Under the pieces are notes generated by a model. The model searched no databases. It worked only from the letters and a program-made list of their open reading frames with translations, and was not told the DNA's origin. The translations under genes and the position numbers were made by a program. 47,731 nt of DNA from Escherichia phage JulesPiccard: sequence record MZ501087. One strand, written 5' to 3'. Shown here one piece after another: positions 2,682 through 44,435 of this stretch (position 1 is its first letter; every line of letters begins with the position of its first letter).

Positions 2682-3944
2682 ATGGTCAAGACAGACAGCT
2701 ACGCCAATATCTTTCTCGGCGGCAGTGATGGTAGTGAGATTTACGGGAGTTTGCAGAATCAGGCGCCCACAATTCTGGCCTCGCTTTATGCTGACAATGC
2801 TCTGGTGCGTCGAATTATCGACACAATACCGGAGACAGCATTAGCGGCAGGATTCCACATTGATGGTATTGATGATGAATCTGAATTCTGGTCTCACTGG
2901 GACGACCTGGAGCTAACAAAACACATCAATGAAGCCTGGTCATGGGCTAGATTGTTCGGTGGGTCTGCAATTGTTGCTATCGTTAAGGACAATAGGGCGC
3001 TAACAAGTCCGGTCAGAGAAGGTGCCGAGCTTGAAACGGTTCGCGTTTACGACCGCACACAAGTAAAAGTACAAACCCGAGAGGAGAACCCACGCAACTC
3101 GCGCTTTGGTAAGCCGCTAACCTATCGCATCACAACAAACGAAAGCGATATGTTCTATGATGTGCATTACACCCGCATTCACATCATTGACGGAGAGCGA
3201 GTCCCTAACGTAATGCGCCGTCAGAATGATGGATGGGGTAGAAGTGTTCTTTCTAGTGATATTCTTGACTCAATCAAGGATTACACGAACTGTGAACGAC
3301 TTGCCACGCAATTACTGAAGCGTAAGCAGCAGGCGGTCTGGAAGGCGAAAGGGCTTGCTGAGTTGTGTGATGACAGCGAAGGATTTGGCGCGGCTCGATT
3401 ACGACTTGCTCAGGTTGATAACAATAGTGGCGTGGGTCAGGCAATTGGCATTGACGCAGAATCTGAAGAGTACAGTGTTCTAAACTCTGATATCGGCGGG
3501 ATTGATGCGTTTCTGGATAAGAAGTTTGACCGAATCGTTGCTCTGAGCGGCATTCATGAAATCATCCTGAAGAACAAGAACGTTGGCGGTGTATCTTCAA
3601 GCCAGAATACGGCGCTTGAGACATTCCACAAGCTGGTTGACCGCAAGCGTAATGCTGAGCTTCTGCCTATTCTTGAGTTCTTAATCCCGTTCATTGTTAA
3701 TGTAGAAGAATGGTCAGTAGAGTTTAATCCTTTAGCGCAGGAGTCGAGCAAGGATAAAGCAGAGATTCTGGAGAAGAACGTAAACAGCATTGCGGCACTA
3801 ATTGCAGCTGGCGCTATGGATACTAACGAGGCTCGTGATACACTACGAACTATCGCACCAGAGATTAAGATTGGTGATGGAAATATCGAACCTGAAGAAC
3901 CATCTAAGGAAGTAATCGCGACGACAGAGGAATCTAATGAATGA
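2682..3944 (+). CDS. portal protein
   Basis: 420 aa, downstream of terL; ATG 2682 after GGAGAAAAAC; acidic C-terminus; size and position typical. Confidence 0.7.
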   Translation: MVKTDSYANIFLGGSDGSEIYGSLQNQAPTILASLYADNALVRRIIDTIPETALAAGFHIDGIDDESEFWSHWDDLELTKHINEAWSWARLFGGSAIVAIVKDNRALTSPVREGAELETVRVYDRTQVKVQTREENPRNSRFGKPLTYRITTNESDMFYDVHYTRIHIIDGERVPNVMRRQNDGWGRSVLSSDILDSIKDYTNCERLATQLLKRKQQAVWKAKGLAELCDDSEGFGAARLRLAQVDNNSGVGQAIGIDAESEEYSVLNSDIGGIDAFLDKKFDRIVALSGIHEIILKNKNVGGVSSSQNTALETFHKLVDRKRNAELLPILEFLIPFIVNVEEWSVEFNPLAQESSKDKAEILEKNVNSIAALIAAGAMDTNEARDTLRTIAPEIKIGDGNIEPEEPSKEVIATTEESNE

Positions 3945-3977: not shown

Positions 3978-5066
3978 ATGTATAAAGTCCGCTATGACAG
4001 CGCAAAGTTTAAGGCAACAATCGACGAGAATGGATTCTTAGTCGATACGCCTGTGGTAGCGCGCCTCGGCGTGCAAGTCTACTACATGGAGGATGGTCGC
4101 ACGGTTCGAGAGTTTCGCCCAGCAGAGGAAGTTTTCAAGGATGAATCCCTCGCAAGCTACCAGGGTAAGCCAATGACCCTGGATCACGTCTTCGTTAACT
4201 CTGAGAACGCTAAAGAGGTGGTAGTAGGTTCAGTTTCTGGCAAAGCTGAACCTCTTGGCAGTTCAGTGGTTGCGCCAATCGTTATTTACGACAACGCAGC
4301 CATTCAGGAAGCTATGGCAGGTAACGCCAAGGAGTTGTCAGTCGGATACTCTGCAATTCTTGACGAAACCCCAGGATGGGGAGACCCTGCTACTGGCGAG
4401 TACATCCTTAAATCTGATGCTGATGAGAAATTCGATGCACCAGAAGGATGGCAGGAGTTCGACGCAATTCAGCGTGACATTAAAGTGAACCATCTCGCAA
4501 TGGTATATCGCGGTCGCGCAGGTATTGCCAAATTGAATATGGACGGTGAGCAGGAAAACCCGTATACTACTGACGTTGATATCAATAAAGAGGATAAACA
4601 GGAAATGATTAAGATTAAACTCGACGGCGCGCAGGAATTTGAGGTCGCACCGGAAGTCGCTTCTCACATCGAAGCGCTGAACGCAAAGGCTGATACCGCA
4701 ATCGCAGAGCGCGACGCACTGAAAGCTAAAGTAGACGCAATGCCTGCCGAAATCGAGGCTGCCGTAGCTAAAGCTAAAGCAGACGCTGAAGCACTAGCTG
4801 CCCTGGTTGCTGTTGCCGCTGAAGCTGGTGTGAAAGCTGACGGTCTGGATGCTAAAGGCATTAAAGTTGCTTACGTTAAAGAAGTCTCCGGCCTTGATGT
4901 TGCTGAGAAATCCGACGCGTACATCGACGCAGCGTTCGACATTGCCAAAGATTCTGATAAAATGGCTGAAGTACGTAAAGCAACTAACGCTTCCAACAAA
5001 TCTGACAGCGCCGATGAGCCTAAGAAATTAGACCCGCGTGCTCGTTTAGCTAAAATTAAGAAATAA
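3978..5066 (+). CDS. putative prohead protease / scaffolding protein
   Basis: RBS GAGGAG 7 nt before ATG 3978; C-terminal Ala/Glu/Lys-rich predicted coiled coil typical of scaffolds; between portal and capsid. Confidence 0.55.
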   Translation: MYKVRYDSAKFKATIDENGFLVDTPVVARLGVQVYYMEDGRTVREFRPAEEVFKDESLASYQGKPMTLDHVFVNSENAKEVVVGSVSGKAEPLGSSVVAPIVIYDNAAIQEAMAGNAKELSVGYSAILDETPGWGDPATGEYILKSDADEKFDAPEGWQEFDAIQRDIKVNHLAMVYRGRAGIAKLNMDGEQENPYTTDVDINKEDKQEMIKIKLDGAQEFEVAPEVASHIEALNAKADTAIAERDALKAKVDAMPAEIEAAVAKAKADAEALAALVAVAAEAGVKADGLDAKGIKVAYVKEVSGLDVAEKSDAYIDAAFDIAKDSDKMAEVRKATNASNKSDSADEPKKLDPRARLAKIKK

Positions 5067-8011: not shown

Positions 8012-8379
8012 ACTACAACGAAATAGAATCAATCACTCGTGCTGGCATTAACTTCTTTAGTGATGCCAGCGGCGTTTATGAAATGAGTACGGGAGCTGGA
8101 TATGTTGAAATCGTTAACGGCGTTGAGGTTGAGGTTCCTTCGCAAACATTTCAGCTAAAGGGCTTGGTGCGAGAAATCAAGACGCGAGATATCGATGGCG
8201 AGTTTATCCAGTTTGGCGATAAGCGCGGAATCTTCACGGCCCAGGTGGAAATCAAGCAGGGTTATCAGATTAAGGTTGATGGTGAGACTTTTGTTGTTGT
8301 TGACCCGCGCCCTGTTAAACCAACTGGCACGGTTGTTGGCTACCGTCCAATTCTTCGTAGGGTGGCTACTTATGGCTAG
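8008..8379 (+). CDS. putative head-tail joining protein
   Basis: ATGA overlap with upstream gene (translational coupling). Confidence 0.45.
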   Translation: MNYNEIESITRAGINFFSDASGVYEMSTGAGYVEIVNGVEVEVPSQTFQLKGLVREIKTRDIDGEFIQFGDKRGIFTAQVEIKQGYQIKVDGETFVVVDPRPVKPTGTVVGYRPILRRVATYG

Positions 8380-23948: not shown

Positions 23949-23991
23949 CAGCACAAATTGCTAAAGACAAAATTAAAAGGTGGGGTATGAT
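23949..23991 (+). promoter_or_regulatory. conserved promoter/operator element
   Basis: CAGCACAAATTGCTAAA ... TATGAT-TACCCCATCAAAAACGAACGAGG. Confidence 0.5.
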
Positions 23992-24020
23992 TACCCCATC
24001 AAAAACGAACGAGGTTAAAG

Positions 24021-25135: not shown

Positions 25136-25164
25136 ATAAAGCCCCTTTCGGGGCTTTTTTTATT
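25136..25164. terminator. bidirectional terminator (SSB / tailspike convergent)
   Basis: AAA-GCCCC-TTTC-GGGGC-TTTTTTT. Confidence 0.75.
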
Positions 25165-27274
25165 TTGCAATCCAGGTGCCTGGCGTTCCTGATGATGTGC
25201 AAATCCACTTTTCAATAAATGATGTTCCGCTTGGGTTTATGTTGTAAACAATATCACCAGCAACCCAGGTTAATGTTGTCGGAGCCGCTCCACCATAAGC
25301 TGTCGCCCTTGATTTGTTGTCAGTTCTGGTTAAAGATCCAAGTATGCTTGGGTTTGTTGCTGTATCGAATCTATTTCCATAGAAAGTTAAATATGGAAGC
25401 CCATCACCATACATCCTAACTGATGTGTCCGTAGTATTGGCTGATTCATTTCCAATTATAACCATACCTTGTGAATTCCATGTTATATTTCTATAAAAAC
25501 CATCAAAATAACAATTAATTATTGAGTTTTTTGATGTGTTTGCATCTATAGCAACATCCGTAGTTGATTCCCCTCCATGAGTGAATCTACAGCCTTTGTA
25601 TCTTACATTTACACCTCCAAAACCAACTTTTGAACACTCAGCTACAATGTCTGATATCTCAACTCCACCACCTCCAGAGAAAGAGAAAAGCTGCCCAACA
25701 TTTGTCGCAGATGAAGAGCTAAATGAGCAGTTGGTCGCGTTATAAAAAGAAACGCATGGAGTTGCGAGCCTATTTCCAATCTGCTTAAGAACAAAGTTAG
25801 AGCAAACTATGTTAGACCCCTGTATTGAAACCATTGCGCTATTGGGTTGCGAGTTCCTGTAAATTGATGTGTTTGATAAGTTAATGCTATTTAATCCACC
25901 CTCCTCGTTGTAAACATAAACGTCTATTTTTTGGTTGTTTGAAGACTGAACTCCAGATATCAATATTGATGATGAACTGGATACATCATCATTCTGCGAG
26001 TAAACCCTTAATCCATACTCTGTATTGTTGTTTGTCGTGACATTGGAAACAATTGACCCAACACATCGCCACAACAAAATACCCCTACCAAGATTGTTAG
26101 CTGGAGCAACACCAGTGTTACCATTGTAGTTAAACTTTCCTGATAGTATTGAGTTATTGAAACCATCACGATCTTGAATTCCGCAAACTAGATTATTAAA
26201 AGACCTTGCTTTATCAATGATCATGTTGCGACATGATACCATCCTTAATCCATCTTGTGATCCCTTAGTTATGATGCAACCATCAACAAGTCCATACTCG
26301 CAGTTTTCCAATAGAATCATGTGTCCGTTGCCTGACGTGTTATCAAGACCTGTCCCAACAAATCTACCTCCAATTATAGAGAAGTTGTTTGCGTAGCTAG
26401 CTCTCCATGCCGCAGTAACCAATTCACTTGTTAGCTGAATAGTTGAAGTGCCAAGCACTATATAATGCCCTGATCTGATCGTAACCTGCTTGCTTTGAAT
26501 GTAGGTTCCAGCCGGAAAATAAACATTTAGAGAGGAGTTAAGCGCTGAGATAATGGCGTCAGAATCATCAGTAACACCATCACCCTTTGCGCCAAAGTCC
26601 TTAACACTAACGAATCCCCTTGATGATATTTCACCCTTTGAGTAAACATCAAGGTTCTGCCTTGCTAGTGGCTTGTCTGTTAAGTCTGAGAGCGCCAAAT
26701 CTTTTCTTAGTAGGTTCTGCGTGTCAAGTGACGCCGCATAATCTGCCGCCTCCTGCGCTGAAGTTGCTGCCGCGTCTTTGGCTGATAGTGCGCTGGTTGC
26801 ACTTGCTGCCGCTGCATTCTTATCGGTGGTCACTTGGGCGGCATCATTTGCAACCTGTGCCCCAATAGAAACAACATCACCATGCTGCGCGTCTACCTGA
26901 GCTACCTTTGATTCAAAATCCGCAGAGTCAAAGTTATTGAAAGCATCAACAGCATCTGCAATCTCAGTTTCACGTGACTGATAGTAACGCAATGTTTCGG
27001 CAACATCCTGAGCTAAACCCTGAACGGTAATCCCATCATGAGCAAGGATCGCGTAACCAGTCCCAGCAGGAACAGTTTCAGAATTAGGATTATAAACATT
27101 AATCTGCGTATCGCTGATAATTTCTGAGATGGTGTAAATTTGTACTGGTTCAGTTTTAAATACAATTGTGGCGCCTGCCCTGATAAGAGTAAGAGGCGCC
27201 TTCCATGTCGTTCCTACGCCAGTCACCTCGCCATTTTCTACTAGTGACGCTGTTCCTAAGTCATAAATTGCCAT
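25160..27274 (-). CDS. tailspike / depolymerase (right-handed beta-helix, pectate-lyase-like)
   Basis: 704 aa; KDFGAKGDGVTDDSDAI motif; repetitive Asn/Ser/Gly/Ile-rich beta-helix-like segments; Ala-rich N-terminal adapter. Confidence 0.75.
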   Translation of the reverse strand: MAIYDLGTASLVENGEVTGVGTTWKAPLTLIRAGATIVFKTEPVQIYTISEIISDTQINVYNPNSETVPAGTGYAILAHDGITVQGLAQDVAETLRYYQSRETEIADAVDAFNNFDSADFESKVAQVDAQHGDVVSIGAQVANDAAQVTTDKNAAAASATSALSAKDAAATSAQEAADYAASLDTQNLLRKDLALSDLTDKPLARQNLDVYSKGEISSRGFVSVKDFGAKGDGVTDDSDAIISALNSSLNVYFPAGTYIQSKQVTIRSGHYIVLGTSTIQLTSELVTAAWRASYANNFSIIGGRFVGTGLDNTSGNGHMILLENCEYGLVDGCIITKGSQDGLRMVSCRNMIIDKARSFNNLVCGIQDRDGFNNSILSGKFNYNGNTGVAPANNLGRGILLWRCVGSIVSNVTTNNNTEYGLRVYSQNDDVSSSSSILISGVQSSNNQKIDVYVYNEEGGLNSINLSNTSIYRNSQPNSAMVSIQGSNIVCSNFVLKQIGNRLATPCVSFYNATNCSFSSSSATNVGQLFSFSGGGGVEISDIVAECSKVGFGGVNVRYKGCRFTHGGESTTDVAIDANTSKNSIINCYFDGFYRNITWNSQGMVIIGNESANTTDTSVRMYGDGLPYLTFYGNRFDTATNPSILGSLTRTDNKSRATAYGGAAPTTLTWVAGDIVYNINPSGTSFIEKWICTSSGTPGTWIAK

Positions 27275-27296
27275 TGTAAAGTCTCCATTTGTAAAA

Positions 27297-27311
27297 TAGC
27301 ACAGATTGCTA
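27297..27311. promoter_or_regulatory. isolated operator palindrome TAGCA-CAGAT-TGCTA at tailspike 5' end
   Basis: perfect 5-bp inverted repeat with 5-bp spacer, 22 bp upstream of tailspike ATG on minus strand. Confidence 0.45.
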
Positions 27312-27337
27312 AGTTGGATTGTAGCAGCTTTCAGACA

Positions 27338-27360
27338 TAAAAAAACCTCCCGTGGGAGGT
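27338..27360 (-). terminator. minus-strand intrinsic terminator after primase gene
   Basis: plus strand AAAAAA-CCTCCC-GTG-GGAGG. Confidence 0.65.
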
Positions 27361-28283
27361 TAGTCTAATAACTCGCTTGCTTTGTATATTCGCTTTCTTA
27401 TGCCTGACTTGAAAAAATTATCATCATTTGGTAATACCACATCAAGATTGCGATCGTCAGCAACAGCAAGTAATTCAAAATTATGGCGAGTACAAGCGAT
27501 GCGTAACTTGTGGTTTCTAAGCGCGTAAGCAACCATTTCCATATTATAACTGGAGTGACAAACAAGTACGCAGCGGTTGCCAGTACCAAGATGAACGTGA
27601 ACACCATCAATCCAATTGTCGACAAGATAAGCGTACTCATCATCTTTAAGAGAGCCAATAACAGCAACTGACTGGCGAGTGTAATCTTTTGCAGCATAAC
27701 TAACATCTCCCTCTTCATTGATAAACATTACATTGCACATTTCCTCTGATATACCGTCACTATAAGCCATAAAGCACGGTATTGCGTGTATTAGTTCGCC
27801 TGATTTTGCTCTACCAACATCAAATCCAAACTCGCTATAGATTCCCTCGTATGTACTGAGTGGGGTTGATTCTACTCTTTTGGTCCTTCCCATTATCTCC
27901 AGGCATCTTTCGTGGTCAATCTGAGCGCCCATCTTGTATGGTGATGTTCTTGATGCTTGCTTGTTTGCTTTGTTAACCACCTCGACGGGGATTAGGTTTA
28001 ACCACTCACCTAGAGCATCGATACATTCGCTGAACGACTCCCCTCGCAGTTTCTGGACCCAAAGAATTCCATCACCTGAGCCGCATTGGTTGCAAATAAT
28101 ACCACCATCACCAGGCTCGCTAACTTTGTCGGTCCATCTTGCGCGATCGTTTCCGCCGCAATAAATGCATGGTTGATGCTTCTTGGTCTGGAAGAACTTT
28201 GGGTCAGCGCCGCAGATATTAATAAGTGCCTTATCCCACAGGCCGCGCATTCTTGGTAGAACCTCTTTCTTATCGTAGTGCAT
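27360..28283 (-). CDS. putative DNA primase (zinc-ribbon type)
   Basis: CIYCGG..(x25)..CNQCGSGDG zinc-binding pattern near N-terminus; replication-module context. Confidence 0.45.
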   Translation of the reverse strand: MHYDKKEVLPRMRGLWDKALINICGADPKFFQTKKHQPCIYCGGNDRARWTDKVSEPGDGGIICNQCGSGDGILWVQKLRGESFSECIDALGEWLNLIPVEVVNKANKQASRTSPYKMGAQIDHERCLEIMGRTKRVESTPLSTYEGIYSEFGFDVGRAKSGELIHAIPCFMAYSDGISEEMCNVMFINEEGDVSYAAKDYTRQSVAVIGSLKDDEYAYLVDNWIDGVHVHLGTGNRCVLVCHSSYNMEMVAYALRNHKLRIACTRHNFELLAVADDRNLDVVLPNDDNFFKSGIRKRIYKASELLD

Positions 28284-28302: not shown

Positions 28303-28337
28303 AATAAAAAAAGGATGTACCGATTATGGCACATCCC
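28303..28337 (-). terminator. minus-strand hairpin plus T-run upstream of primase gene (possible attenuator)
   Basis: plus strand AAAAAAA-GGATGT-N-ACATCC. Confidence 0.4.
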
Positions 28338-28366
28338 ATTACTTACTCTTTAACTTTTCGTGCTAC

Positions 28367-28604: not shown

Positions 28605-29090
28605 TCATCCATGAGATATGTCTTTAGCTTTTCGTGCTGCTTCGTTAGCAGCCTTAATTTTACGCCATGATCGACATTCTGGTTTGGTTGCTAACTCGGA
28701 TTCAGTAACCACACGCAGCATGTGACGCTTTTTGCAACGCAGCGTAAGAGGCTTTCCATTGCCGTCGAATTGCAGATCTGGTCGGCAGAATGTAGCGCGA
28801 AAACCTTCTCCGGTTCGTTTGTAGTAGTTGTGAGATAGCTGAGCGCCACGTGCAGAGATCATGCCACGCTTAAACCACTCTTCTACAGCCTGCGGCGTCA
28901 CCTTTAACTGCTTTGCGATATTCGCCTTTGTGCCGAAGAAATCAAGGAGCATCTCAAGCCGCGCGCGTAGCCCAGCCCTTACCTCATCTTTCAAAACGTA
29001 GTAACCTGAAGGTCGTTTCCGCTGCTTTTTATCTTCAGTGCGGATGGTTCCGTTATTGCCGTTAGTGGTTCGCTTATCAACTGCATTCAT
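28605..29090 (-). CDS. putative DNA-binding protein (HTH)
   Basis: basic 161-aa protein with HTH-like IAKQLKVTPQAVEEWFKRG; first gene of a divergent operon; palindromic operator in its upstream region. Confidence 0.45.
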   Translation of the reverse strand: MNAVDKRTTNGNNGTIRTEDKKQRKRPSGYYVLKDEVRAGLRARLEMLLDFFGTKANIAKQLKVTPQAVEEWFKRGMISARGAQLSHNYYKRTGEGFRATFCRPDLQFDGNGKPLTLRCKKRHMLRVVTESELATKPECRSWRKIKAANEAARKAKDISHG

Positions 29091-29103
29091 TTTATTACCT
29101 CAA

Positions 29104-29145
29104 TAGCATTTTTTGTTAAAAGTCATTCTGATTTGATGGTAGTAT
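29104..29145 (+). promoter_or_regulatory. conserved promoter/operator element in divergent region (HTH gene / helicase)
   Basis: TAGCATTTTTTGTTAAA ... TAGTAT. Confidence 0.5.
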
Positions 29146-29191
29146 TGTACTCAATTAAACGCTACAAGACAATTTTTATAGGAATTTAGAT

Positions 29192-31186
29192 ATGTTGCCT
29201 ATCGAGAAGCTGGTTGCCAACTTTGATAAAGAGAGAATTAAACAGATTCAGAAAGATTACCAGTTTGGCGAGATAACACCTTACGAGTTCCAGTGCGTTA
29301 CATTTGATGCAATTGGGAAAGCCATTGGCAAGTATGAGGCTCCATTTATCGCAGACCTTTCCGTGTCTGCGGGCAAGACAATAATTCTGGCTATGATTGG
29401 TAAGCGCATGGAGCAATTGGGGTTGCCTTATATGGTGCTCTCTCGCCAGTCAGAGATAATCAGCCAGAACTCAGAAGAGCTTCGCAACTTCGGCATCCGT
29501 AACAGCGTCTATTGCGCTGGTCTTAACGTTAAATCAGTTTACTACCCAACCATAGTTGCTAGTGAGGGTACGGCAGCCAACGGCTTGTTTAAGGGGCTTG
29601 GTGATTATGTTCCGGCAGTTATCGCTATCGATGAATGCCACATGGTCGATCACATGGATATCGTGGAAGCTGAAGAGAACGAAGAAACATTTGAGCAAAT
29701 GAGCACAAAGAAAGGTGAGATGGTATTCAAGGATGGCGTTAACACTGGTTTGATTGGTACAGGTCGCGCACAATACACGCTAATAATTACCGAAATGAAA
29801 CGTCGTTGCCGTGAGAAATACGGGCGGGAGCTTCGCATCTTTGGCCTTACTGGCAGCCCATATCGTAACAACGATCATATCGTCGTTAGTAATCCAAACA
29901 TCCGTGGTTTCTGGCGCAAGACGGTAATACAAGTACCAACCAATTACCTTGTTGATTTGGGGTTCGTTGTGCCAACTGTTTACGGTGAGGTTGGCGATTT
30001 GGGTTACGATCTTAGTGAGTTTGCGCCAGATGGAAGTGACGGAATTAAGGATTTTAGCAAAAAAGAAATGGATGCGATGGAGGAGAAAATCCACCAAAAC
30101 CAATCAATGACTCAAAAGATTATGCAATTTGCCGCAAAGTTCATGGAGACTCGCAACGCAGCGCTTGTGACATGCTCTGGTAAGCGTCACTGTGAAGAAG
30201 CGGCAGCGGCGCTTCCTGAGGGTGTGACCTGGGCTATAGTAACCGACTCTACAGGTGAGAAAAAGCGCCGTGAGATTCTGGCTGACGCTTCAGAAGGTAA
30301 GTATAAGTTCATCTTTCAGATTGGTTGCCTCACAACCGGAGTGAACGTCCCACCGTGGGATACATCAATCATTCTGCGCAAGGTTGGTAGCATCACGTTA
30401 CTTATTCAGCTTTTGGGTCGAGGCATGCGAATTCTTAAGAAGAAGCATAAAGAAATGGGCATGGTTAAGGACGACCACGTGGTTCTAGACTTCGCTGGAA
30501 CACTTGACGACATGGCAGAGTTGTACTTTGACCCAATCATAGAGGAGGTGCAGGACCAGAAGTTTAAATCATCACGCAAGGGAAACGATGAGCCGAGGGT
30601 TTGCCCGGCCTGCAGCTATGAGAACTCACCATTCGCTCGTCGATGCAATAACGTAATTGACGGGAGGCGTTGTGAACATTTTTTTAAATTTCGCTTATGT
30701 GAAGATATAGAGGACCACCAGACAAAAGTTACTGTTAAGAAAGGTTGTGGTGAGAAGAATGATATTGCCGCTAAAAACTGCCGCTGCTGCGGAGAAATGC
30801 TTATTGACCCTAACGCAAAGTTGTCTGGAAAGATGTATCGAAAAGGTGACTGGTTGAGAGTTTACGGATTCAGTATTGGGTTAACTAAAAACCAAGCCGG
30901 AATCGTTGCTCGCTATGAAATAATGGCTCACAGCGGGGATAGGTTTGTTGCTTACGAAACTTTCTTCCCAGAGAGTGACCATCGCGTTTGTTCCGTTAAG
31001 TGGAAGGCATTTTGCCAGGCGCACATCCAGAACAAAACAGAAGCATTTCGCATCGGAAGACTTCGAAACGCCAAAATGATTATGACTAACGCAATTCAAT
31101 TTCGTGAGCCAATGCGAGTGACTCATAGAAAGAACCAGAAGGGGCAGGACATTATTGCAAACAAATCTTTTACTATGGATGATTGA
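29192..31186 (+). CDS. superfamily-2 DNA helicase
   Basis: Walker A SVSAGKT, DECH box (IAIDECHMV), C-terminal Cys-rich zinc-ribbon-like region. Confidence 0.75.
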   Translation: MLPIEKLVANFDKERIKQIQKDYQFGEITPYEFQCVTFDAIGKAIGKYEAPFIADLSVSAGKTIILAMIGKRMEQLGLPYMVLSRQSEIISQNSEELRNFGIRNSVYCAGLNVKSVYYPTIVASEGTAANGLFKGLGDYVPAVIAIDECHMVDHMDIVEAEENEETFEQMSTKKGEMVFKDGVNTGLIGTGRAQYTLIITEMKRRCREKYGRELRIFGLTGSPYRNNDHIVVSNPNIRGFWRKTVIQVPTNYLVDLGFVVPTVYGEVGDLGYDLSEFAPDGSDGIKDFSKKEMDAMEEKIHQNQSMTQKIMQFAAKFMETRNAALVTCSGKRHCEEAAAALPEGVTWAIVTDSTGEKKRREILADASEGKYKFIFQIGCLTTGVNVPPWDTSIILRKVGSITLLIQLLGRGMRILKKKHKEMGMVKDDHVVLDFAGTLDDMAELYFDPIIEEVQDQKFKSSRKGNDEPRVCPACSYENSPFARRCNNVIDGRRCEHFFKFRLCEDIEDHQTKVTVKKGCGEKNDIAAKNCRCCGEMLIDPNAKLSGKMYRKGDWLRVYGFSIGLTKNQAGIVARYEIMAHSGDRFVAYETFFPESDHRVCSVKWKAFCQAHIQNKTEAFRIGRLRNAKMIMTNAIQFREPMRVTHRKNQKGQDIIANKSFTMDD

Positions 31187-36258: not shown

Positions 36259-37842
36259 TCACCCCAGCAATCGTGGATTAATGTAAACTTTATCACCAAT
36301 CAGGCACGTGTAGTTTTTCTCATCAAGCATTGGCAGCAGGTGATCTTTAATCTTAGTCATCACTCCAGCCTGAGCTTCGAATGGTTTGACCTTACGAGCA
36401 GCTTCATATAGAGAACGAACGCCTACTACGCCTTTCCCGTTCCTGCCTTGTTTAATCAGAATATCAATCAGCTTATTCATCTCGGCATTGTCTCCAGCGT
36501 GACCAGCGGCGTTGGCAGATGACAGATAAGTCTTGCTAAGTTCCTGGAACATAATTACAGCCTCCTGCATTGTGTCCAACTCAATCTCCCTGGACTTCTG
36601 TGGACTCCCGCCGTTAGGGTTGAACCAGTTGCGAATAGTGTGAAGAACCGCAGCGATTCTGATAGCCTGCTTATCGAACTTGCCTAACGCACCGCGCAAC
36701 ATTGTGTGTGAATACTTCCCGCCGTCCGCGAGGTGAGGCTCCATTTCCTGACGCGCTCGGTTGAGATATTTCATTGCTGAGTTGCTCACTGTCAACTTAA
36801 CATCTTGCTCATTCATGATTTCGTGAACCAGTCGGAAGTAATCAGCCTTTAGTCCACCATCAATTGGCTCGTATGTTGATTCACCATTTTCATCAACGAA
36901 TACACGCTCGCCCAGGAATGACTTTTCACGTACAAGCAGGAAACGTTCCGACACACCAATACCACGCGCACCAGCATTCATGATCGCGTTTATTGTTTCA
37001 TCCTGCGCAATTACTGAGATGCAACCCATAGCAAAGAAACTCATGTTGTTCTCTGCATTCGCGCGAGCGATAGATACGTGCCCACCATCCCATGCTTTAA
37101 GAACAAGTTCGCTGTTCGTTTTCTTAGAGCCATCACCATAGGTCATGCCAAGCAGTGAGTTAACACTCGTTGCCTCATCCGAGATAACCGCGAAGTTACC
37201 CTGGCGGTTGTTTATTCGTGCCAGGCCTTCAGGTGTGGTGTCTGATACCGGGAATACGATATCGCACAACTTCTCCAGTTTTTCCTCTAGCTCCTCCTTT
37301 TCCTCAAATAGGGAGGCCATCTCTGAAGGAGATTTTTCCTGCTTCATCTCTTTGGATAATGCGGATAGTTTTGCCATAATCTTTTTGCGCTCACGCTTGC
37401 GAACTTCATTCAGTCGCTCGGTCTCAGCAATCATTGGAGCAATCGAAAGTGAGTTGATGGCTGATTTACCAGTTGATGGCGGCTGACTGGTCACGACGTA
37501 AAGCGAAGTCGGTTGCTGAGTTCCATGATACTCGACAGTAAAGCGGCCCAGCATCGCAGCAGAAATACACCCCAGGAAGTGCATATAGGCTGAAGACTCT
37601 GGGAACTGAACGGAGCGGGCAATGTTGGCAGAAAGTTTACCAACAACATCAATATCATTACCGAGTGAGATTACGGGGTACTTGTCATTAGCGGAATCAA
37701 TCTCTACGGGCGCCTTCCAGAACGATTGAGACTGTCGATAGCCATTGGCATTAATAGCGACTCGCAGGGGTGGGAGGTTGTCTGCGGCAGCAATTGCCAT
37801 AACCTGTTCAACAGATAGCTTATCTTCGTTGAAATCAAACAT
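36259..37842 (-). CDS. large hypothetical protein (Walker-A-like STGKS motif)
   Basis: 527 aa; QPPSTGKSA; own promoter element on minus strand at 37873..37915; N- and C-termini duplicated in 40684..41223. Confidence 0.55.
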   Translation of the reverse strand: MFDFNEDKLSVEQVMAIAAADNLPPLRVAINANGYRQSQSFWKAPVEIDSANDKYPVISLGNDIDVVGKLSANIARSVQFPESSAYMHFLGCISAAMLGRFTVEYHGTQQPTSLYVVTSQPPSTGKSAINSLSIAPMIAETERLNEVRKRERKKIMAKLSALSKEMKQEKSPSEMASLFEEKEELEEKLEKLCDIVFPVSDTTPEGLARINNRQGNFAVISDEATSVNSLLGMTYGDGSKKTNSELVLKAWDGGHVSIARANAENNMSFFAMGCISVIAQDETINAIMNAGARGIGVSERFLLVREKSFLGERVFVDENGESTYEPIDGGLKADYFRLVHEIMNEQDVKLTVSNSAMKYLNRARQEMEPHLADGGKYSHTMLRGALGKFDKQAIRIAAVLHTIRNWFNPNGGSPQKSREIELDTMQEAVIMFQELSKTYLSSANAAGHAGDNAEMNKLIDILIKQGRNGKGVVGVRSLYEAARKVKPFEAQAGVMTKIKDHLLPMLDEKNYTCLIGDKVYINPRLLG

Positions 37843-37872
37843 TACTTCTCTCCGTGTTGTTTCTGAGCGGCC

Positions 37873-37915
37873 ATTATATCAACGGCCGCCTATAATTCAT
37901 TATCAATTTGTGCTA
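37873..37915 (-). promoter_or_regulatory. conserved promoter/operator element (drives 527-aa gene)
   Basis: minus strand TAGCACAAATTGATAAT-N-TATAAT; leader CAGAAACAACACGGAGAG. Confidence 0.5.
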
Positions 37916-41243: not shown

Positions 41244-41286
41244 TAGCAATAATTGCTAAACAATTGATCGGGTAGTCAGCTATGAT
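41244..41286 (+). promoter_or_regulatory. conserved promoter/operator element
   Basis: TAGCAATAATTGCTAAAC ... TATGAT-TACCCCATC. Confidence 0.55.
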
Positions 41287-41310
41287 TACCCCATCTACAA
41301 CAAAGAGGAA

Positions 41311-44365: not shown

Positions 44366-44405
44366 CAAGAATTGCTAAAACAGCATTGGGGTAATTTGTT
44401 ATAGT
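44363..44405 (+). promoter_or_regulatory. conserved promoter/operator element
   Basis: TAGCAAGAATTGCTAAAA ... TATAGT-TACCCCATAGAAACGAATGAGG. Confidence 0.55.
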
Positions 44406-44435
44406 TACCCCATAGAAACGAATGAGGAAGAAGAG

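Follow-up and report, generated by a model that had tools for sequence, protein, structure and literature searches.

The lateral tail fibre gene of Escherichia phage JulesPiccard and a marbox-like element reversed over its predicted transcription start

The lateral tail fibres of Drexlerviridae (T1 gp26, Rtp rtp50 and those of Bas01-13 of the BASEL collection) are encoded at a locus which, according to Maffei et al. 2021 (PMC8594841, S1C Fig legend), has recombination genes on one side and primase/helicase genes on the other, all conserved and syntenic, and the conservation of the fibre gene was reported to be confined to its 5' end (PMC8594841). Escherichia phage JulesPiccard (MZ501087.1), a member of the BASEL collection, belongs to Braunvirinae, within Drexlerviridae (PMC13035648). 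We analysed its sequence over 47,731 nucleotides (referred to as the window), with the focus on a tailspike gene on the minus strand and on a palindrome which precedes it. The open reading frame encodes the lateral tail fibre (tailspike) of this T1/Rtp-like siphovirus, and it is a member of the Drexlerviridae family of such fibres, with which it shares the locus between SSB and primase, the strand, the N-terminus, the flanking terminators and the variable distal part. The tailspike, its locus and its mosaic structure have already been published, and the gene is ordinary; the interesting part is a wider observation on promoters. We consider it probable that the gene codes for an ordinary fibre of its family with an exchanged distal module, and that the palindrome is a reversed copy of a marbox-like element, lying over the predicted start of the fibre promoter.

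25160..27274, minus strand: coding sequence of the lateral tail fibre (tailspike), 704 residues, stop codon included, ATG start; 100% identical to the JulesPiccard 'lateral tail fiber protein'
27296..27315, plus strand: marbox-like element ATAGCACAGATTGCTAAGTT, including the palindrome at 27297-27311; opposite to the fibre gene, over roughly positions +1 to +15 of the predicted mRNA

The palindrome, TAGCACAGATTGCTA, is separated from the ATG by 22 nucleotides (27275-27296). A previous inspection of the DNA letters, called here the sequence-only reading, had described it as a perfect palindrome lacking the usual -10 hexamer and leader, and this description is accurate, as there is no TAnnnT at a distance of 21-23 nucleotides. 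The same reading regarded it as a dedicated operator of the tailspike gene, a view that has to be abandoned, since the palindrome is one copy of an element occurring throughout the genome. The sequence TAGCA-N5-TGCTA is present seven times in the window versus 0.09 expected, a number reached in none of 100 shuffles, and when one mismatch to the palindrome is allowed about 18 sites are found. With the exception of one site inside a gene and of the tail-fibre copy, these sites share the oriented architecture a-TAGCAC-nnW-TTG(C/T)TA-AAc, in which a hexamer resembling TATAGT stands 22 nucleotides further on (two sites have 21 or 23) and precedes a short leader, a ribosome-binding site and ATG. The site at 27297 is the only one of the approximately 18 without a TAnnnT hexamer 21-23 nucleotides away in either orientation. 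Fifteen promoters of the same architecture were found in T1. The composite pattern also turned up in 118 stretches of IMG/VR, many of them on contigs of 45-52 kb, a result that says little without taxonomy. The marbox-like promoters of the window, about 18 in number, are at the following positions.

2175, 9906, 14298, 15559, 22306 (minus strand), 23949, 28623 (minus strand), 29104, 31605: marbox-like promoters
32446, 37901 (minus strand), 38681 (minus strand), 39519 (minus strand), 41244, 42375, 43747, 44363, 45511: marbox-like promoters, continued

Two other readings of these sequences were rejected on the grounds of spacing: with TTGCTA taken as a -35 box, the spacer to the -10 hexamer is fixed at 22 nucleotides and no -10 occurs at 16-18 nucleotides, and a sigma-32 reading of the CCCCAT leader also has the wrong spacing.

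The resemblance of the phage element to a regulatory site of the host is considerable. The published consensus of the E. coli marbox is 5'-gcactaattgctaaa-3' (PMC5684230), and at up to three mismatches it is matched by 17 sites of the window, versus 2.2 expected; site 31607 agrees with it at 15 of 15 positions and five more sites at 14 of 15. In E. coli K-12, the micF marbox ACAGCACTGAATGTCAAAAC is followed by 18 nucleotides and TAGAAT, and the phage promoters likewise have 18 nucleotides between the 20-bp box and the -10 hexamer. The phage sites also fit a fuller consensus, AYnGCACnnWnnRYYAAAY, which Martin et al. reportedly gave in 1999. A class II marbox promoter is defined by a forward box that overlaps the -35 region and has its centre between -36 and -55 (PMC12052159); that of micF is centred near -41 (PMC8811837) and the phage element near -42. 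The likeness to micF-type class II promoters extends to the forward orientation of the phage element, its distance of 18 bp from the -10 hexamer and its equality with the marbox consensus. Judged by these comparisons of sequence, the upstream element of the phage promoters is indistinguishable from a marbox, the site of MarA, SoxS and Rob, and the promoters have the class II activation geometry, as has micF. Sequence, spacing and orientation taken together favour host MarA, SoxS or Rob as the binders, proteins which are conserved in Enterobacteriaceae (PMC5684230).

The phage set nevertheless differs from the host mar/sox/rob regulon. There are about 18 near-consensus sites in 47.7 kb of phage DNA, whereas 33 MarA peaks were obtained by chromatin immunoprecipitation sequencing in the host (PMC5684230). 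Unlike host marboxes, the phage sites also constrain ATA before GCAC and TT before GCTA, and it is the constraint on these positions that gives rise to the dyad. Finally, the tail-fibre copy is reversed over the transcription start instead of being placed at about -42. In the library of papers searched, none was found with these sequences, on palindromes of T1-like promoters or tying marboxes to phage promoters; the T1 and Rtp genome papers may hold a prior description.

How the tail-fibre copy could act depends on the promoter in which it is embedded, and this promoter forms part of a compact unit with the following elements.

27334..27361, minus strand: Rho-independent terminator of the primase gene; hairpin 27361-27344, 7 bp, then TTTTTATG
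27318..27326, minus strand: predicted extended -10 promoter TGcTACAAT, no -35; TGnTAnnnT kept in relatives; predicted start near 27311
27283..27286, minus strand: Shine-Dalgarno sequence GGAG, 8 nucleotides before ATG; ribosome-binding site annotated at the equivalent place in SU57
25138..25157, both strands: hairpin of the convergent SSB/tail-fibre terminator, 8 bp; strong T tract TTTTATTTT on the plus strand, weaker TTTATATTT on the minus strand

Read from the primase terminator, the minus strand is GGAGGTTTTTTTATGTCTGAAAGC-TGcTACAAT-CCAACT-TAGCAATCTGTGCTA-TTTTACAAATGGAGACTTTACA-ATG. Between a terminator and the start codon of the tail-fibre gene, the motif TGnTAnnnT is conserved in 12 phages, which represent five or more genera or subfamilies, as TGcTACAAT in SU57, Rtp and DTL, TGaTACAAT in AugustePiccard, TGcTATACT in ETEP102 and CJ19, TGaTAAAAT in T1, SH6 and BIFF, and TGcTATTAT in Sin4 and SG01, the latter two despite differing surroundings and neighbour gene. 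Because the motif is kept in contexts that cannot be aligned, we infer that the fibre gene has a promoter of its own which works without a -35. The terminator on each side, which the sequence-only reading had predicted, was found (hairpins 25138-25157 on the plus strand and 27361-27344 on the minus strand); the region contains seven terminator-like sites versus 2.7 expected. The primase terminator, which is also present in SU57 and ETEP102 and is annotated there, shields the tail-fibre gene from the early operon that runs leftward. At the other end, the stop codon of the tail-fibre gene falls within the T tract of the convergent terminator, and both strands are annotated as terminators at the equivalent place in T1 and ETEP102. 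The gene would accordingly be an insulated unit of its own, running from the primase terminator through the extended -10, a leader of about 37 nucleotides, GGAG and ATG to the terminator convergent with SSB. It is possible that its expression is late.

The tail-fibre copy starts 6 nucleotides past the extended -10 hexamer and, judged by its asymmetric flanks, points away from the fibre gene, as it does in all relatives infecting E. coli that were examined. Being reversed and about 6 bp downstream of the -10, it does not have the class II geometry. Marboxes which overlap core promoters, with the box between -35 and +25, are reported to be associated with repression, pbpG being an example (PMC12052159), and the tail-fibre copy resembles those of the pbpG type in overlapping the predicted start, where it may repress as well. 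A factor bound at this copy would obstruct RNA polymerase and damp transcription, and such damping would keep a virion protein of low copy number at a low or delayed level of expression. From this analysis of position and orientation, the effect of the tail-fibre copy is most likely negative. In T1, boxes at 8363, 15071 and 18835 stand outside the class II position, before the genes of the terminase small subunit, the major head protein and the tape-measure region; at the head-protein promoter the box is reversed inside the spacer of TTGACG-16-TATTAT. These boxes of structural genes lend some support to the existence of a differently regulated class of genes.

Several observations weigh against the interpretation of the palindrome as a reversed marbox serving a host factor. 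The tail-fibre copy, GCACAGATTGCTAAG, is the poorest match to the marbox consensus, agreeing at 12 of 15 positions; other sites of the window score 13-15 of 15, and the equivalent site reaches 14 of 15 in SU57 and Rtp, as it does in T1. The relatives infecting Klebsiella (Sin4) and Cronobacter (SG01) keep the extended -10 and have no marbox after it, so the element is dispensable for tail-fibre expression in some lineages and the box is a lineage-specific addition. The perfect dyad found in JulesPiccard would also suit a dimeric regulator made by the phage. Moreover, Rob is reported to be largely sequestered and inactive in unstressed cells (PMC5684230), which makes a purely host-factor model uncertain.

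The dyad is indeed the basis of a serious rival to a host factor, in which the palindrome is the operator of a dimeric helix-turn-helix regulator of the phage (the Cro-like protein of 161 residues encoded at 28605-29090), this regulator binds all copies, and the likeness to marboxes is due to coincidence, mimicry or competition. We regard this as an unlikely but substantial competitor. It draws on the seven sites at which the TAGCA-N5-TGCTA dyad is perfect and on the conservation of the regulator, a homologue of T1 gp23 and Rtp rtp52 with a P22_Cro-like helix-turn-helix and a match to PHROG 2856, 'transcriptional regulator', at E 3e-83. In addition, the box at 29104 separates the regulator gene from the helicase gene, which diverges from it, and forms part of the regulator's leader; this is a layout classically seen in autoregulation, and it recurs in T1 at 36445. 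On the other hand, the two halves of the element are conserved unequally, TAGCA on the left being nearly invariant across the sites of the window and the right half varying (TGTTA, TGATA and TGCCA are also seen), and the flanking sequences lack symmetry and have a set orientation towards the -10. Sin4 (GGCACAAATAGCTAAAC) and SG01 (TAGCACGAAAAGCTAAAC) keep GCAC-N7-AAAC at the same distance to TATAGT/TATCAT, whereas the dyad is lost; dyad symmetry, then, does not persist wherever the element is conserved, as an operator of a dimeric repressor should have it. The unequal halves and this loss suggest that selection does not act on the dyad, which is one special form of the marbox. Neither does a phage dimer account for a match of 15 of 15 to the host marbox with the spacing of micF; and were an activator made by the phage needed at almost every promoter, the initial round of transcription would lack an explanation. 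No convincing AraC-family protein was found in the phage by tblastn, a weak test with a MarA probe (best E 0.024, inside the terminase gene).

The divergent control region at 29090-29192 deserves mention in its own right. Its marbox at 29104 has the class II position for the helicase gene and at the same time belongs to the leader of the Cro-like regulator, where it comes after a minus-strand promoter, TTGTCT-17-TACAAT; the layout looks autoregulatory.

The orientation of the tail-fibre copy permits yet another interpretation, namely that it is the upstream part of a forward promoter on the plus strand, whose RNA would be antisense to the primase gene and its terminator and unconnected with tail-fibre expression. 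Read on this strand, the copy fits the oriented consensus A-TAGCAC-nnA-TTGCTA-A, like the functional promoters. However, no hexamer of the form TAnnnT stands at the fixed distance of 22 nucleotides: the window has GACATA there, SU57 and Rtp have GTCATA or GGCATA, and T1 has TACCTG. Neither a leader nor an open reading frame follows the copy. Such a promoter was rejected, a -10 being absent in every relative examined, and we hold this explanation to be very improbable. Equally little can be said for an action of the palindrome as RNA, in the form of a stem-loop at the 5' terminus that stabilises the tail-fibre mRNA. A start near 27311 would make the first 15 nucleotides of the message a 5-bp stem with a 5-nucleotide loop, but this structure is weak (-3.6 kcal/mol), the palindrome is conserved in sequence among relatives and shows no covariation, and the same sequence recurs, untranscribed, upstream of about 18 other promoters. 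The absence of covariation and the untranscribed recurrence indicate that conservation acts on the DNA sequence.

Returning to the reversed marbox as the probable identity of the palindrome, one may extend it to a more general proposal. T1-like coliphages might drive most of their genes from class II promoters of the host marbox type, served by host MarA, SoxS or Rob or by a phage mimic, and the reversed box, carried by the fibre gene alone, might hold it down until the factor is diluted over the replicating genomes, the approximately 18 high-affinity sites on each acting as a titration timer for a late gene. We put this forward as a tentative idea, more doubtful than not. If the marbox reading is true, a family of virulent phages which are common contaminants in laboratories and fermentations uses antibiotic-stress regulators of the host at its promoters; inducers of MarA, SoxS and Rob, such as salicylate, oxidants and bile salts, would shift phage gene expression, the response of the receptor-binding fibre would be the reverse of that of other genes, and there would be a bearing on combinations of phages with antibiotics.

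A separate problem is the origin of the gene itself. The sequence-only reading had taken the gene to be inverted and embedded in the replication module, between SSB and primase and at a great distance from the tail genes. The position between SSB and primase stands, and the distance is relative, as the last tail genes finish near 21.9 kb, about 3.3 kb from the tail-fibre gene; the inversion does not stand. In the upstream direction of the plus strand lie ERF (PF04404) and a protein of 139 residues annotated as SSB in SU57, Rtp and Sin4, both encoded on that strand, and the other flank is formed by a primase with the PF08273 zinc ribbon (Pfam). The tail-fibre gene is convergent with SSB and thus adjoins recombination genes on one side and the primase on the other. 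In SU57, ETEP102, Rtp, AugustePiccard, DTL, CJ19, T1, SH6 and BIFF, the genes for exonuclease, ERF and SSB share a strand, next come tail fibre, primase and regulator on the opposite one, and the helicase gene follows. In SG01, for which the stretch from the regulator to the tail fibre was compared, the fibre gene has the same place and orientation after the primase, and the annotated regulator is on the strand opposite the primase. The locus between SSB and primase is the family norm, and not a local inversion or insertion.

It is therefore most improbable, in our opinion, that the whole gene is a recently acquired, inverted receptor-binding cassette placed in the replication module. Such a cassette would agree with the flanking terminators and own promoter of the fibre gene, which render it independent of orientation, and with the different neighbourhood in the Webervirus Sin4 (gpJ, fibre gene, ssb, erf, exo). 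Against it, the position and orientation of the gene, its 5' end, its leader and both terminators are shared with relatives at about 85% nucleotide identity across subfamilies, the replacement is limited to the 3' two thirds of the gene, and Sin4 differs in its recombination block, whereas its fibre gene is oriented in the usual way with respect to the tail genes. In this Klebsiella phage (NC_049847.1, 25500-34300), gpJ and the fibre gene are adjacent and convergent, and the exo-erf-ssb block lies beyond the fibre gene, on the same strand as the latter and opposite gpJ. This order suggests that the recombination module moved between lineages and the fibre gene did not move relative to the tail genes. 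Sin4 differs from JulesPiccard also in that its fibre gene comes after SSB in the same direction and has the extended -10 without a marbox.

A horizontal exchange, which had likewise been proposed for the gene, holds for its distal part but not for the gene as a whole, the junction being inside it. The nucleotide relatives of JulesPiccard, at about 86% identity, are SU57, A110b, BEK2/3, JeanPiccard and Rtp, and megablast matches to relatives reach only window positions of about 26630-27500. Comparison of the matches, recommended earlier as a way of finding the breakpoint, placed their left ends in a nested series at codons of about 99, 105, 115, 134 and 147, within the helical shaft, and, in the last group, comprising five phages, at residues 212-216 (window 26627-26641), in the linker directly before the beta-helix. 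For the distal 496 residues just two full-length relatives are present among 50,697 phage records, Escherichia phage KKP 3715 (71 kb) with 44% identity and Enterobacter phage fGh-Ecl02 (153 kb) with 34%, to which one metagenomic relative, 89% identical, can be added. In a large protein collection, the distal module (34-47% identity) was found fused to other N-terminal domains in E. coli and Enterobacter phages and prophages; these uncharacterised homologues carry PF09008, PF18668 or PF03906, which we take to be N-terminal adapters of podovirus tailspikes or tail fibres. Since the homology to relatives breaks off within the gene, and since unrelated phages and prophages have the distal module attached to other adapters, the receptor-binding module has been exchanged at an intragenic junction, and the 3' two thirds of the gene, beyond codons of about 100-215, have been swapped by recombination within it. 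The record of Rtp is in keeping with this picture, as it ascribes to rtp50 a 'beta-helix fold' and confines its likeness to T1 gp26 to the N-terminal region.

Phages of Dickeya and Arthrobacter have tail proteins that are 41-45% identical to the C-terminal portion of about 140 residues (residues 562-704 approximately, window 25163-25590). As these proteins are devoid of the rest of the beta-helix, the C-terminal domain may be separately mobile.

The protein can be divided into the following parts.

26975..27274, minus strand: N-terminal virion-attachment (adapter) domain, residues 1-100 approximately; the sole part conserved across Drexlerviridae; matches by tblastn, PDB and PHROG
26654..26974, minus strand: Ala-rich helical shaft, residues 101-207 approximately; end of megablast matches; AlphaFold2 helices of low confidence
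25355..26617, minus strand: right-handed parallel beta-helix, residues 220-640 approximately, a putative glycan-binding or depolymerase module; PF12708, PF13229, AlphaFold2 and Foldseek
25163..25354, minus strand: C-terminal beta domain, residues 641-704 approximately; AlphaFold2; separately common to tail proteins of Dickeya and Arthrobacter phages

With the N-terminal 205 residues as a query, tblastn retrieved 900 phage records, nearly all of T1-like enterobacterial phages, mostly of Escherichia, Klebsiella and Shigella, which match residues 1 to about 130. Residues 1-175 match the solved depolymerases of Klebsiella T1-like phages (PDB 7VYV, 7VZ3 and 7LZJ; E of about 1e-33), and several tail-fibre families of PHROG match residues 1 to about 175. 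A domain search set this adapter apart from the pectate-lyase-like PF12708, which covers residues 221-427 (E 4.4e-11, 43.4 bits versus a Pfam cut-off of 27) and includes KDFGAKGDGVTDD at residues 224-236. The AlphaFold2 model, built on 32 homologues, is poor at the N-terminus, where the alignment is shallow; it contains helices at 90-113, 117-164 and 169-195 (low confidence) and, at residues 220-704, with a predicted local distance difference test score >90, a long beta-helix and, after it, a small beta domain. Foldseek against PDB matched this model to AlgE4, PfbA and the tailspikes Det7 gp208, Sf6, HK620 and phi29 gp12 (E 1e-10 to 1e-6) with a probability of 1.00 and an identity of just 11-18%. 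Pfam, PDB, AlphaFold2 and Foldseek thus agree on a receptor-binding protein of the tailspike type with an N-terminal adapter and a beta-helix, as the sequence-only reading of this minus-strand gene had it.

Comparison with fibres of known structure points in the same direction. The Klebsiella T1-like depolymerases are homologous to the JulesPiccard protein over the N-terminal 175 residues and follow the same plan of adapter, shaft and beta-helix, whereas their catalytic parts are unrelated to its distal part. The right-handed parallel beta-helix is common to the podovirus tailspikes (Sf6, HK620, Det7 gp208) and phi29 gp12 (Foldseek E 1e-8 to 1e-6), but the solved podovirus tailspikes are only 11-16% identical to the JulesPiccard fibre and differ in the adapter. 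From other Drexlerviridae fibres the protein differs in having a distal beta-helix with no close relative among deposited phages (the best being those at 44% and 34%). In the interpretation that we favour, residues 1 to about 210, the adapter and helical shaft, would fix the fibre to the virion, and residues from about 220 to 704 would bind a surface polysaccharide, which the distal part probably cleaves or modifies. E419, D430 and D451 are invariant among the 32 homologues, and D368 nearly so; from this conservation they may be considered candidate catalytic residues, and no characterised homologue was found that would assign roles to these four positions. It counts against an enzymatic function that some beta-helix fibres bind without any activity of this kind. 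A specificity for capsule or O-antigen is plausible, and the tailspike would offer a new, uncharacterised glycan-specific module of potential use in serotype targeting or phage engineering.

Some further observations were made in the course of this analysis. Two records matching at about 86% identity over 77-80% of a 24-kb query bear unexpected host names, Campylobacter phage A110b (MG065688.1) and Pseudomonas phage PsgS01F (PP134917.1). The latter equals the E. coli phage record UALMA_PCEc3 in coverage, identity, bit score and length, and the host names on both records are probably wrong or due to contamination.

At some of the marbox-like promoters, the -10 hexamer is located in the loop of a perfect inverted repeat of 6-9 bp (23970-23995, 37865-37890 on the minus strand, 41265-41290 and 44385-44410 in the window; 3550-3580, 4360-4390 and 4880-4910 in T1; about 205-230 in Sin4). 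The letters of the repeat vary by site (GGGGTAA/TTACCCC, GGCGGCC/GGCCGCT, AAGGCC/GGCCTT, GTGCGCA/TGCGCA), which amounts to compensatory variation; the z-scores for folding range from -4.5 to -6.5. In other promoters there is instead a small CCA-NGGA-TGG hairpin immediately upstream of the -10. A hairpin around the -10 as a universal feature of these promoters was rejected, since no more than 4-5 of 16 promoters of JulesPiccard show it clearly. The repeats enclosing the -10 could serve RNA processing of read-through transcripts, reflect DNA structure or result from an overlap with terminators. Finally, upstream of the primase gene (28312-28363), a marbox-like GCACGAAAAGTTAAA at 28349 is immediately followed by a strong terminator hairpin at 28337-28312 on the minus strand, an odd juxtaposition.

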